Virus record (IMG/VR): IMGVR_UViG_2872185964_000005
Direction: 5' to 3' (one strand)
DNA length: 55,490 nt
From: a virus
Lineage: Duplodnaviria > Heunggongvirae > Uroviricota > Caudoviricetes
A model generated the notes under the pieces. That model made no database searches. It saw nothing but the letters and a program-made list of their open reading frames with translations, and had not been told where the DNA came from. Made by a program: the position numbers and the translations under genes. This document shows positions 12,430-25,587 of this stretch, piece by piece. Within the stretch, counting starts at the first letter, position 1. The number at the start of each line of letters is the position of its first letter.

Positions 12430-12526
12430 AATCCGGTAATTTATCCCCTGCCCGCGCACACTGATTTGCCCCTTCGCAATAAGGGTTTTCAGATGGTCAA
12501 GATGGCGTGGTGTTAAATCAGGAAAC
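12430..12526 (-). pseudogene. Nu1: Terminase small subunit Nu1, C-terminal fragment, separated from its N-terminal part by IS insertion and inversion
   Basis: Translation FPDLTPRHLDHLKTLIAKGQ continues the Nu1 sequence that stops at 18569 (..LSMQRQFP); shared 8-bp GTTTCCTG duplication. Confidence 0.7.
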
Positions 12527-12656
12527 GTAAGGCAGTATGACTTTCCGTGAGACAGATGCTGGCCAACGTGGGATATTTAACGCGGGTTAACATCGTTGTC
12601 AGAGCCGCATGGGTGAGCTGTTGCTACACCCCGGTATTTCCACCACGGAGGCCAGC

Positions 12657-13781
12657 ATGAACAACAATAACACATTGTACGTCGGGTTAGATGTTCACAA
12701 AGAATCGATTACTGTCGCTTATGCTATCAATTCAGAACCTGTTGAACTGATGGGTAAAATTGGCACATCACCTACTGATATTCAGAATCTTTGTAAACGT
12801 CTCAGGTCAAAGTCATCGCAGGTCAGTATCGTTTATGAAGCGGGGCCCTGTGGTTATGGACTTTATCGTCGGCTGGTGAAATCCGGTTTTGACTGCATGG
12901 TCTGCGCCCCCTCACTTATCCCGAAAAAACCGGGGGAGCGGGTTAAAACCGATCGCCGTGATGCCATCAGACTTGTGCGTTCACTGCGTGCAGGAGATCT
13001 TTCTGCTGTCTACGTACCCGGCATTGAAGATGAGGCATTCCGGGATTTGGCCGGGCATGGGCATCTGCCCGCGATGATTTACGGCATGCAAGGCAACGTC
13101 TGAAATCGTTTCTTCTGGTTCATGGGTCCATTATGTCGGGCGAGCAGATTGGGGCCCTGCACACCGACGCTGGCTCAGCAAATACTCATTCGAAAGTCCC
13201 TGGCGACAATTAGCTTTTGACGAACACCGTCGTACAATAGAAGACCGGCAGGCACAATGTGAACGGCTGGAATCCGCCCTGAAGGAGGCCGTTACCGAAT
13301 GGAGGCTGTATCCGGTAGTAGAGGCGCTGCAAGCCATGCGAGGGATTCAGTTTATTACTGCGGTTGGATTAATTTCTGAACTGGGTGATCTGACCCGTTT
13401 TGAACATCCACGACAACTGATGTCATGGTTTGGTATCACGCCATCAGAATATTCATCGGGTGGAAGCAGACATCAGGCAGCATTACCAAAGCCGGAAACA
13501 GCTATGCCAGAAAGCTATTGGTCGAGGCAGCGTGGAGTTACCGTCATCCGGCACGCATCAGTCCGGCAATACAAAAAAGGCAGGAAAATTTACCCCGCCC
13601 CGTCATTGACAGAGCATGGGATGCTCAACTCAGGCTTTGTAAGAGGTATCGAAAACTTCAGGCCAAAGGAAAGAATGTCAATATTACAATTGTTGCTGTT
13701 GCACGTGAGCTGGCGGGTTTTATCTGGGATATGGGCCGAATAGCAATGTCTGTCGCACAACAACCACAATGTCACAAATAA
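12657..13781 (+). CDS. IS110-family transposase/recombinase, copy with two apparent homopolymer frameshifts
   Basis: MNNNNTLYVGLDVHKESITVAYA... (DEDD/RuvC-like start typical of IS110 family); identical to the intact 22602-23729 copy except for homopolymer lengths. Confidence 0.8.
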
Positions 13782-14073
13782 AAAATGAGAATAACCAGTT
13801 CCCTGAAGGCGACGTAGCCCGGTACAAGAGTAACCCACGTTAGCGCTTGGCGACGGCGGAACAAAGCTGATTCGCGACGTAAGAAAGTGGCAGGCTCATA
13901 TGACGGACCTCTGTAATGCGGTATCCAACCCGCGAATATCAGCGTGATTCACCGTCGGATTTACTGCTACGTCGCCCTCAGGGAATTAAACCTAAAAAGA
14001 AAATCGTCAAAATTAGAGATTCCGGTTTGACACGGAAAGTCATATCAGCGTCAACGGAGCACCGTATTGACGC

Positions 14074-22601: not shown

Positions 22602-23729
22602 TTATTTGTGACATTGTGGTTGTTGTGCGACAGACATTGCTATTCGGCCCATATCCCAGATAAAACCCGCCAGCTCACGTGCAACAGCAACAATTGTAAT
22701 ATTGACATTCTTTCCTTTGGCCTGAAGTTTTCGATACCTCTTACAAAGCCTGAGTTGAGCATCCCATGCTCTGTCAATGACGGGGCGGGGTAAATTTTCC
22801 TGCCTTTTTTGTATTGCCGGACTGATGCGTGCCGGATGACGGTAACTCCACGCTGCCTCGACCAATAGCTTTCTGGCATAGCTGTTTCCGGCTTTGGTAA
22901 TGCTGCCCTGATGTCTGCTTCCACCCGATGAATATTCTGATGGCGTGATACCAAACCATGACATCAGTTGTCGTGGATGTTCAAAACGGGTCAGATCACC
23001 CAGTTCAGAAATTAATCCAACCGCAGTAATAAACTGAATCCCTCGCATGGCTTGCAGCGCCTCTACTACCGGATACAGCCTCCATTCGGTAACGGCCTCC
23101 TTCAGGGCGGATTCCAGCCGTTCACATTGTGCCTGCCGGTCTTCTATTGTACGACGGTGTTCGTCAAAAGCTAATTGTCGCCAGGGACTTTCGAATGAGT
23201 ATTTGCTGAGCCAGCGTCGGTGTGCAGGGCCCCAATCTGCTCGCCCGACATAATGGACCCCATGAACCAGAAGAAACGATTTCAGACGTTGCCTTGCATG
23301 CCGTAAATCATCGCGGGCAGATGCCCATGCCCGGGCCAAATCCCGGAATGCCTCATCTTCAATGCCGGGTACGTAGACAGCAGAAAGATCTCCTGCACGC
23401 AGTGAACGCACAAGTCTGATGGCATCACGGCGATCGGTTTTAACCCGCTCTCCCGGTTTTTTCGGGATAAGTGAGGGGGCGCAGACCATGCAGTCAAAAC
23501 CGGATTTCACCAGCCGACGATAAAGTCCATAACCACAGGGCCCCGCTTCATAAACGATACTGACCTGCGATGACTTTGACCTGAGACGTTTACAAAGATT
23601 CTGAATATCAGTAGGTGATGTGCCAATTTTACCCATCAGTTCAACAGGTTCTGAATTGATAGCATAAGCGACAGTAATCGATTCTTTGTGAACATCTAAC
23701 CCGACGTACAATGTGTTATTGTTGTTCAT
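22602..23729 (-). CDS. IS110-family transposase/recombinase, intact copy
   Basis: Single 375-aa reading frame from MNNNNTLYVGLDVHKE... to ...AQQPQCHK. Confidence 0.85.
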   Translation of the reverse strand: MNNNNTLYVGLDVHKESITVAYAINSEPVELMGKIGTSPTDIQNLCKRLRSKSSQVSIVYEAGPCGYGLYRRLVKSGFDCMVCAPSLIPKKPGERVKTDRRDAIRLVRSLRAGDLSAVYVPGIEDEAFRDLARAWASARDDLRHARQRLKSFLLVHGVHYVGRADWGPAHRRWLSKYSFESPWRQLAFDEHRRTIEDRQAQCERLESALKEAVTEWRLYPVVEALQAMRGIQFITAVGLISELGDLTRFEHPRQLMSWFGITPSEYSSGGSRHQGSITKAGNSYARKLLVEAAWSYRHPARISPAIQKRQENLPRPVIDRAWDAQLRLCKRYRKLQAKGKNVNITIVAVARELAGFIWDMGRIAMSVAQQPQCHK

Positions 23730-23766
23730 GCTGGCCTCCGTGGTGGAAATACCGGGGTGTAGCAAC

Positions 23767-25073
23767 TGAACCGCCCGGGTTTCCTGGAGAGTGTTTTATC
23801 TGTGAACTCAGGCTGCCAGATCATCGTTTCCGATGGAAGCATAATAAGCTTTTTCTGCTTCTGCCGGAGGAGTATGGCCCAGCCTTTCCAGCAATCGTCG
23901 ATTATTATACCAGTCCACCCACGTGAGTGTGGCCAGTTCCACTTCTGCACGGTTTTTCCAGCTCTTACGGTGTATTACCTCCGCTTTGTAAAGACCATTG
24001 ATGCTCTCCGCCATCGCGTTGTCATACGAGTCGCCTGTACTTCCTGTTGATGCCAGTAATCCGGCTTCCTTAAGCCGCTGTGTGTAGGCCAGCGATACAT
24101 ACTGAGAACCTTTATCACTGTGATGGACCGTGCCGGACGGTCGACGGGCCCATAACGCCTGCTCCAGAGCATCCAGCACGAATGTCGTTTCCATGGACGA
24201 TGAGACCCGCCACCCCACGATGTATCCGGCAAACACATCAATGATGAACGCCACATAGACGAAGCCCTGCCATGTGCTGACGTAAGTAAAATCAGCCACC
24301 CACAGCTGGTCAGGTCGTTCTGCCACGAACTGACGGTTTACGCGGTCGCCTGCGGCAACGGCTTTCCGGCTGATGGTCGTACGGACCTTTTTACCCCGGA
24401 GAACACCGGCAAGTCCCATAACCGCCATGAGACGTGCCACAGTGCATCTGGCCACTCTGATACCTTCCCGTAACAACTGACGCCAGACTTTACGCACACC
24501 GTATACCTGATGATTCCCATCGTATACGCGCAGTATCTCTTTCTTCAGCCAGTCATCGCGCTGCGCACGGGCACTGCGTTTATCAGGATGATGTCGCTGT
24601 TCCTGACAGTGGTAATACGTTGACGGGGCAATATGTAGTTCACTGCATACCGGTCCGACCCCGTACAGCTTACGCAGCTTATCCAGCAGTGGCATCACTT
24701 TTTCCAGAGGCGGTCGAACTCCGCCTTCGCAAAATAAGCGGAAGCCTGGCGAAGGATATCGTTACTGCGGCGCAGTTCACGATTTTCACGTTCCAGCTCT
24801 TTCAGACGCTGACGTTCAGCGGTGGTGAGCCCGCCATCACCGCCTCCGGTATCCCGCTCATGCTGGCGTACCCAGACACGCAGAGTCTCCGGTGTACAGC
24901 CAATCTTTGGGGCAATGGAACAAATTGCCGCCCACTGTGAGTCATATTCGCCCTGACTTTCCAGAACCATACGAATCGCCCTCTGACGGACTTCGGGGAA
25001 AAACGAGTATTTTTAGTCATCCTGTTTACCTCTTTCTCAGGGAGTTTAGTCTCCAGGATTCCCGGGCGGTTCA
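23767..25073 (-). mobile_element. IS629 copy 2, inserted in the left-end region of the IS110-family unit
   Basis: IS629 termini; OrfB 23808-24698 and OrfA about 24695-25020 (OrfA N-terminus in an alternate frame, homopolymer-type difference). Confidence 0.85.
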
Positions 25074-25587
25074 CAACAGCTCACCCATGCGGCTCTGACA
25101 ACGATGTTAACCCGCGTTAAATATCCCACGTTGGCCAGCATCTGTCTCACGGAAAGTCATACTGCCTTACTATCGTATTGATTGATCTGCATCAAATTAA
25201 CGTAAAAGCAACTTCAGATAATACAAATCAGCAACACTGAATATGGGGAAACATTATGTCATCAAAGAACAGAACCCGCAGAACAACAACCCGCAACATC
25301 CGATTTCCAAACCAGATGATTGAACAAATTAACATCGCTTTTGATCTGAAAGGTTCAGGAAACTTTTCAGCGTGGGTTATTGAAGCCTGCAGGAGAAGGC
25401 TGGCAACAGATGCAACGCATCTGCGCCCGGCCAGCATGACAAATAACGAGAAATGAACGTTCGGTTACAGGAGCAGGTACCCACTGTCCTCCAACAATAT
25501 TTCATCTTCATATCCGACGGAACAAGACTTACCCTGCCGGGATGTACAGAATAACAACAGAGTGATAATTAATTTCTGATGAAATAA

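Follow-up and report, generated by a model that had tools for sequence, protein, structure and literature searches.

Inversion of the cos-Nu1 segment between two inverted IS66-family/ISSso6 composites in a decayed lambda-like Shigella dysenteriae prophage

The window, that is the whole stretch of 55,490 nucleotides analysed here, comes from Shigella dysenteriae ATCC 9764 (CP026872) and carries a decayed lambda-like prophage (Table 1). The left flank of the prophage matched E. coli prophages with 95% cover and 98.6% identity and gave Pfam matches to GpA_ATPase, GpA_nuclease, gpW and portal, with TerL present as two ORFs of 248 aa and 409 aa. The lysis genes of the right flank lie on the minus strand. 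Between the flanks is a segment (M) of 0.7 kb, or 2 kb with the IS629-like element that it contains, in which cosN (GGGCGGCGACCT) was located at 16677-16688 and Nu1 starts with GTG at 16872. The parts of a lambda-like cos/terminase module were all found, namely cosN, Nu1 (Phage_Nu1) and gpA (GpA_ATPase/GpA_nuclease), but the order cos-Nu1-A is broken in the window as it stands and appears only after reconstruction. The copy of cosN in the window is short of one G, and the window assembly is rich in homopolymer indels, pointing to an imperfect consensus.

Table 1. Coordinates of the prophage flanks, the two composites, the segment between them and the target-site duplications in the window.
Feature	Position	Strand	Remarks
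Left flank, lambda-like late genes, tape measure to TerL (gpA) and C-terminal part of Nu1	662..12518	-	
8-bp duplication copy, Nu1 site	12519..12526		CAGGAAAC, reverse complement of GTTTCCTG
Composite copy A	12527..16548	-	4022 bp; Pfam and PGAP labels
Copy A, right-repeat tip	12527-12531		GTAAG
Copy A, ISSso6	12532-14048		
Copy A, IS66-family body	14049-16548		tnpC, tnpB, tnpA and left repeat
8-bp duplication copy, ylcI-cos site	16549..16556		ATACGATA (reverse complement)
Inverted segment M, cos region plus about the first 127 codons of Nu1	16549..18569	+	Pfam Phage_Nu1
IS629-like IS3-family element inside Nu1	17233..18542	-	1310 bp; CTT duplication; PGAP 'IS3 family transposase'
Second copy of Nu1-site duplication	18562..18569	+	GTTTCCTG; adjoins IS66 left repeat
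Composite copy B, same IS66::ISSso6 composite with two nested IS	18570..25170	+	6601 bp
Copy B, IS66 body	18570-22335		
IS600 inside tnpC of copy B	19762..21025	+	1264 bp; GGT duplication; PGAP label IS600
Copy B, ISSso6	22336-25165		
Second IS629-like element, 5' leader of ISSso6, copy B	23767..25073	-	
Copy B, right-repeat tip	25166-25170		CTTAC
Second copy of ylcI-cos duplication	25171..25178		TATCGTAT, reverse complement of ATACGATA
Right flank, ylcI, TonB_C protein, lysis genes, then Q and replication region	25179..43891	+	
ylcI	25256-25456	+	

Segment M is bracketed by two copies of one composite element in opposite orientation. The preliminary description of this DNA had proposed two inverted IS66/IS110 composites, and both the repeat structure and the Pfam matches (in copy A, DEDD_Tnp_IS110, DDE_Tnp_IS66, TnpB_IS66 and HTH_Tnp_1) bore this out. 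In each composite ISSso6 is inserted 5 bp inside the right inverted repeat of an IS66-family element. The latter was assigned to its family by consecutive tnpA, tnpB and tnpC genes with a DDE TnpC (PGAP labels IS66 tnpA, tnpB and tnpC; Pfam HTH_Tnp_1, TnpB_IS66, LZ_Tnp_IS66, zf-IS66 and DDE_Tnp_IS66), by terminal inverted repeats that open with GTAAGCG as for the IS66 family, and by the 8-bp length of its target-site duplications. With ISSso6 removed, the left repeat (GTAAGCGTAAACTGACCGCCGTAT) and the right repeat (GTAAGCGTCAACGGAGCACCGTAT) match at 20/24 positions. ISSso6 itself belongs to the IS110 family (Pfam DEDD_Tnp_IS110 and Transposase_20; PGAP label ISSso6, 100% identity); it lacks long terminal repeats but shows a subterminal inverted repeat of 13 bp (ATGACTTTCCGTG). 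In two clean assemblies the two composites were 100% identical over 2843 and 1192 bp, apart from one IS600; true divergence of the two copies in the window was rejected, as the differences are homopolymer indels. The IS3-family element inside Nu1 is called IS629-like on the basis of its ends. A short-read contig breaks at the boundary of the second IS629-like element.

ISSso6 targets a specific sequence, and its flanks were identical in 11 loci, with (G/A)TAAG on one side and CG(T/C) on the other. Within the IS66 terminal repeat ISSso6 takes one fixed position and orientation, GTAAG^CG, and some copies occupy non-IS sites containing (G/A)TAAGCG.

All four 8-mers named in the preliminary description were found where it had placed them, each directly adjoining an IS tip. 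Position 12527 opens GTAAGGCAG, the 5-bp tip of the IS66 right repeat, followed by ISSso6; position 16548 closes with ACGCTTAC, the left repeat (IRL) reversed; position 18570 opens GTAAGCGTAAAC, which is IRL; and position 25170 closes with CCTTAC. The 8-mers by themselves are not rare, occurring 6 and 3 times in the window where chance alone predicts 2.0 and 0.8. For both flank pairs to be reverse-complementary exactly at the four IS boundaries, however, the chance probability is near (4^-8)^2. The uninterrupted E. coli reference has one copy of each 8-mer, against two at the IS boundaries here, demonstrating two target sites that are single-copy in intact prophages. One site lies in Nu1 and the other between ylcI and cos, and each composite carries one flank from each, as had been claimed.

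The ancestral arrangement was reconstructed by joining the left flank, the reverse complement of M minus the IS629-like element, and the right flank, with both composites removed and one copy of each 8-mer kept. The reconstruction aligned to the prophage of E. coli ARS-C301 without gaps through both junctions and the IS629 site (98.8% identity over 1297 nt). In 712 E. coli genomes a single unbroken match spans at least 80% of the reconstruction. This gapless alignment to an intact prophage was the decisive test, and it confirmed that the inversion of the cos-Nu1 segment is real. Gene order in the intact E. coli prophage is lysis-ylcI-cos-TerS-TerL, and flipping 16549-18569 regained the lysis-ylcI-cos-Nu1-A order with an uninterrupted Nu1. 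Nu1 was rejoined as predicted, but the sequence across the join (DSIPLSMQRQFP) becomes contiguous only when the 1310-bp IS629-like element and one CTT copy are taken out.

Related genomes were reached through an exact-protein look-up of the chimeric TnpC'::IS600 ORF, and their junctions were checked by pattern searches and alignments. S. boydii CDC 3083-94 (CP001063) and CP026762 carry the same four exact junctions and the same inverted segment as the source genome, and the IS629-like element of Nu1 is absent from both. The chimeric Nu1'::IS66 protein P0047 was present on 8 contigs. Exact matches to the Nu1'::IS629 ORF, the TerL fragment and YlcI were confined to the source or a 3.4-kb contig, and those to the TonB_C protein and a 74-aa ORF lay mainly in unrelated E. 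coli prophages. The IS66/cos junction had no match in E. coli RefSeq complete genomes, and no relative was found with an un-inverted M plus both insertions or with a single insertion (3/3 complete genomes were inverted). These genomes also bear on whether the assembler oriented a short segment between long inverted repeats wrongly, a mis-join that the preliminary description had named as its own refutation. A segment of 0.7-2 kb between inverted repeats of 4 kb and 6.6 kb is a classic setting for such an error, and the homopolymer indels show that the consensus is imperfect. Set against this, the four junctions are linked in the same way in three independent complete assemblies, and the nested IS600 and IS629-like elements let the assembler tell the copies apart, making an assembly artefact very unlikely.

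The position of IS600 distinguished the copies further. In CP001063 and the source IS600 occupies the copy next to ylcI, and in CP026762 the copy next to TerL, with the orientation of M unchanged, a difference that depends on correct repeat resolution in the three assemblies and was judged at the assembly level. The three genomes share identical IS600 junctions, and the copy lacking IS600 has the empty site. This pattern requires crossovers on both sides of IS600, indicating that homologous recombination has acted between the copies. For the marker to change copies, the locus would have to pass through the opposite orientation or undergo a double exchange. The inverted repeats are identical, with duplications that pair across the copies and not within them, as expected of an IS inversion by homologous recombination. 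A shared insertion hot spot for IS600 was also considered and rejected as unlikely, given that IS600 sits at other positions in the copies of the composite on pINV.

One of the crossovers needs to fall between IS600 and the left repeat, in 1192 bp of plain IS66 DNA with no specialised site. This bears on programmed or site-specific inversion, in which M would have been flipped by a dedicated invertase or by the recombinase of ISSso6, working on the two inverted copies of that element. The two ISSso6 copies are indeed mutually inverted and each encodes, now or once, a recombinase. The crossover in IS66 DNA lies far from ISSso6, the repeats are whole IS copies and not short crossover sites, and nothing is switched, as M carries no more than cos and a broken gene. 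The gene tables list no invertase gene in or beside the segment, on which ground a dedicated invertase was rejected, and site-specific inversion as a whole is barely credible.

We favour, with a probability of roughly 0.6, an account in which the composite came to lie in two inverted copies at two sites and general, RecA-type recombination flipped the cos-Nu1' segment. One copy would have inserted in Nu1, duplicating GTTTCCTG, and a second 0.7 kb away at the ylcI-cos site, duplicating TATCGTAT. Homologous recombination between the 4-kb inverted repeats would then have flipped the segment, leaving every copy with one flank of each site. We infer both the two separate insertions before the first flip and RecA as its agent. 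IS-flanked inversions are frequent in Shigella (PMC8072062), which counts in favour of this account. Against it, all three genomes are inverted, and two insertions 0.7 kb apart in a 4.7-Mb genome call for local hopping or luck. Of the earlier proposal that two original insertions were followed by recombination, the recombination between copies gained support from the IS600 marker; the two insertions are not implied by the duplications, since the identical end product results when a single copy inserts and then transposes replicatively in trans within the same molecule.

In this second route the composite would have inserted once, at either the Nu1 or the ylcI-cos site, and then transposed replicatively in trans onto the other. 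A single event would generate the second inverted copy, invert the 0.7-kb segment and split a new 8-bp duplication in inverted orientation, with IS600 moved by later homologous exchanges. In such intramolecular transposition, described for IS26 and Tn4401 (He et al. 2015, PMC4471558), an inverted new copy arises, the intervening DNA is inverted and the two halves of each duplication pair end up apart, in inverted orientation. When the geometry was worked out by hand following that scheme, the product was L-CAGGAAAC-[IS]-ATACGATA-M-GTTTCCTG-[IS inverted]-TATCGTAT-R. The 0.7-kb spacing of the target sites is then accounted for in one step, as are identical copies that both carry ISSso6 in the right and not the left repeat, and the inverted state of 3/3 genomes is consistent with it. 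The IS600 positions still call for two later homologous exchanges, and the element must have been active despite the insertion 5 bp inside its right repeat. We know of no demonstration of replicative (cointegrate-type) transposition for the IS66 family, and a literature search returned nothing on the transposition mechanism of this family or on this locus. The replicative route is possible but the less probable explanation. Just as tentatively, the locus may be the trace of a one-step intramolecular replicative transposition by an IS66-family element; in addition or instead, M may continue to flip in culture, a possibility suggested by the exchange of the IS600 marker. If true, the former would be the first sequence-level hint of replicative transposition in the mechanistically uncharacterised IS66 family, by an element capable of the move even with ISSso6 lodged 5 bp inside its right repeat.

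The biological importance is small. The inversion is without evident function. Nu1 was already split by the IS composite, and in ATCC 9764 also by the IS629-like element, leaving the prophage unable to package DNA in either orientation of the segment. The rearrangement is of an ordinary kind for IS-rich Shigella genomes, with a textbook mechanism, and it lies in a prophage that is dead in any case. The locus is a clean worked example of a rearrangement history read from swapped target duplications, with the caution that this signature cannot separate recombination from replicative transposition. Its 4-kb inverted repeats, 0.7-kb insert and IS600 marker also make it a small natural test bed for IS-mediated flipping and IS66 movement.

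The invariable placement of ISSso6 at GTAAG^CG, which forms the tip of IS66 repeats, may be of greater interest than the inversion. IS4321 and IS5075, which are IS1111/IS110-type elements, insert in the terminal repeats of Tn21-family transposons. ISSso6 likewise sits inside the terminal repeat of another element, but its host is an IS66-family IS. Shigella chromosomes provide many documented cases of inversion by homologous recombination between inverted IS copies (Seferbekova et al. 2021, PMC8072062). As in those, two identical inverted IS copies bracket the flipped DNA and neither copy has matching direct repeats, the duplications pairing across copies; unlike those, the flipped DNA is a very small piece (0.7 kb without and 2 kb with the IS629-like element) within a prophage, and its repeats are composites in which as many as four IS are nested, with IS600 serving as a natural crossover marker. 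The signature is also identical to that of trans replicative transposition by IS26 and Tn4401, with the 8-bp duplications inverted and one on each copy, whereas the present element is a member of the IS66 family and not of IS6 or Tn3, and its right repeat is interrupted by ISSso6.

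Comparison of the window with itself bore out that the region around cos carries one element twice, in inverted orientation: copy A on the TerL side and copy B on the ylcI side, with segment M between them. The outer element is an IS66-family IS (tnpA, tnpB and tnpC by Pfam) with a left repeat beginning GTAAGCGTAAAC and 8-bp duplications. The right repeat is broken 5 bp from its tip by a 1.52-kb IS110-family element labelled ISSso6 by the NCBI annotation pipeline, and removal of ISSso6 restored a right repeat (GTAAGCGTCAACGGAGCACCGTAT) in which 20 of 24 positions agree with the left one. 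Nu1 is represented in M by its first ~127 codons, on the plus strand. A sequence search of the window found the four 8-mers where the preliminary description had placed them, each adjoining an IS terminus. Taken alone, the 8-mers are not rare (6 and 3 matches in the window vs 2.0 and 0.8 expected); their weight is that both flank pairs are reverse-complementary exactly at the four boundaries.

Coordinates of the composite copies, segment M and the elements nested in them (window positions unless a locus is named)
Feature	Position	Length	Remarks
Copy A	12527-16548	4022 bp	opens with GTAAGGCAG, closes ...GTTTACGCTTAC
Copy B	18570-25170	6601 bp	copy A plus IS600 and an IS629-like element; opens with GTAAGCGTAAAC, closes ...CTGCCTTAC
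IS600 in tnpC of copy B	19762-21025		GGT duplication
IS629-like IS3-family element in copy B	23767-25073		
Segment M	16549-18569		between the copies; upstream-of-cos region, cosN, Nu1 start
cosN	16677-16688		GGGCGGCGACCT; in M
IS629-like element splitting M	17233-18542		CTT duplication
IS600-bearing region compared, locus L025 of CP026762.1	9119-14409		
IS600-bearing region compared, locus L026 of CP001063.1	9119-14410		

To reconstruct the original arrangement, M was stripped of its IS629-like element, reverse-complemented and set between the left and right flanks, with a single copy of each 8-mer kept. The product contained an unbroken Nu1 (...LDSIPLSMQRQFPDLTPRHLDHLK...) and found counterparts in 712 E. 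coli genomes, in each of which a single stretch covers 80% or more of it; the best match was 98.8% over the full 1297 nt. The alignment to an E. coli ARS-C301 prophage was gapless at both junctions and at the IS629 site, and that prophage has one occurrence of each 8-mer and the order lysis genes, TonB-like gene, ylcI, cos, small terminase, large terminase, portal. M is therefore inverted relative to both flanks, and both 8-mers are true target duplications marking two insertion sites 0.7 kb apart.

Relatives of the locus were reached by exact look-up of the chimeric ORF created by IS600 inside tnpC. The window's genome, CP026872.1, is listed as Shigella dysenteriae ATCC 9764 (Hawkey et al. 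2020 supplementary table, PMC7373316), and the same locus was found in two further complete genomes, CP001063.1 (S. boydii serotype 18 CDC 3083-94) and CP026762.1. The four junction sequences were exact and M was inverted in all three, and this identical linkage in three independent assemblies makes the mis-join considered in the preliminary description very unlikely. Both relatives lack the two IS629-like elements, and these aside their M differs from that of the window by a single G in cosN. The loss of this G from cosN (16677) is among the changes private to the window assembly, along with one C lost from the 3' part of Nu1 (about 12470; Nu1 in frame with A), the shortened ends of the second IS629-like element and the splitting of TerL (10496-12459) into 248-aa and 409-aa ORFs. 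Many single-base homopolymer indels separate the window from the two relatives and the copies from each other, several of them in copy A; where copy A departs from copy B, it is nearly always by one base in a run of C or G. Errors in the long-read consensus of CP026872 are the probable source of these indels and of the private changes, with real decay a possible alternative. In CP026814.1 (locus L010, 10737-12430) the junction of ylcI, TATCGTAT, IS66 tip and ISSso6 is kept without IS629, and the IS66 body breaks off ~150 bp into the tnpC 3' end, where it is fused to chromosomal DNA near yeeX-sbcB; no IS end was found at this breakpoint.

Exchange between the copies can be followed through the nested IS600, a natural marker. 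IS600 occupies the same tnpC site in the ylcI-side copy of CP001063 and the window and in the TerL-side copy of CP026762, with identical junctions in 3/3 genomes and an empty site in the sister copy, while M keeps the same orientation throughout. IS600 excepted, the copies within CP001063 and within CP026762 match at 100% identity across 2843 + 1192 bp. Plasmid copies of this composite carry IS600 elsewhere, which makes an insertion hot spot for IS600 unlikely. The pattern fits an un-inverted ancestor from which two separate inversions, each a single event, arose by crossovers on opposite sides of IS600; it also fits two successive exchanges in one lineage, equivalently a double exchange. Under both histories one crossover falls between IS600 and the left repeat, within 1192 bp of ordinary IS66 DNA beside M, which points to general homologous recombination between the copies rather than a specialised site.

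Two original insertions followed by recombination, as first proposed, reproduce the end product, and we give this route a probability of about 0.6; the same product, however, also follows from one insertion. It is possible, if rather unlikely, that a single insertion came first and intramolecular replicative transposition in trans then created a second copy in inverted orientation, flipped the DNA in between and left the new duplication inverted, with one copy on each element, as that process does (He et al. 2015, PMC4471558). Traced by hand, this geometry gives the window arrangement exactly, and it would account for the 0.7-kb spacing of the sites, the identity of the copies and ISSso6 in the right repeat of both. 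However, our literature search found nothing establishing replicative transposition for IS66 elements, and later homologous exchanges would still be needed for the IS600 positions.

The flanks of ISSso6 were constant, (G/A)TAAG on one side and CG(T/C) on the other, at 11/11 loci (window 12527-14048 and 22336-25165; L010 and L015-L024), indicating that the target of ISSso6 is GTAAGCG, a sequence conserved at the tips of IS66-family repeats. A literature search on insertion into GTAAGCG found nothing. ISSso6 lies in the right repeat in the window; at loci L017, L018 and L022 it occupies the left repeat, in the same IS66 element or in others, and it is also present in non-IS sites bearing the GTAAGCG-type motif, e.g. 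nupG-speC. The window closes with the start of a third GTAAG-ISSso6 left end (55467-55481). The same IS66::ISSso6 composite, 4026 bp long, is present whole in pdxK on the E. coli FDAARGOS_943 chromosome (L028) and beside virF on invasion plasmids (L039, EIEC pINV), so the composite either moves as a whole or has formed repeatedly.

The window holds two other inverted repeat pairs. One is IS1, whose copy at 47197-47964 has a 9-bp duplication (TGTGACGAC); the copy at 53583-54350 has flanks that do not match and so may mark another deletion or rearrangement. The other is a 598-bp perfect repeat of an IS3-family element (1-598 and 50734-51331), which could bracket a 50-kb inversion; its copy at 1-598 terminates the prophage tail region near 662, within the tape measure gene.

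A literature search found no description of this locus, which offers a modestly useful natural substrate for the study of IS66 movement and IS-mediated flipping. The inversion is of a standard kind, like the IS-bracketed inversions that are frequent in Shigella (PMC8072062), and it lies in a prophage with its packaging genes already destroyed.
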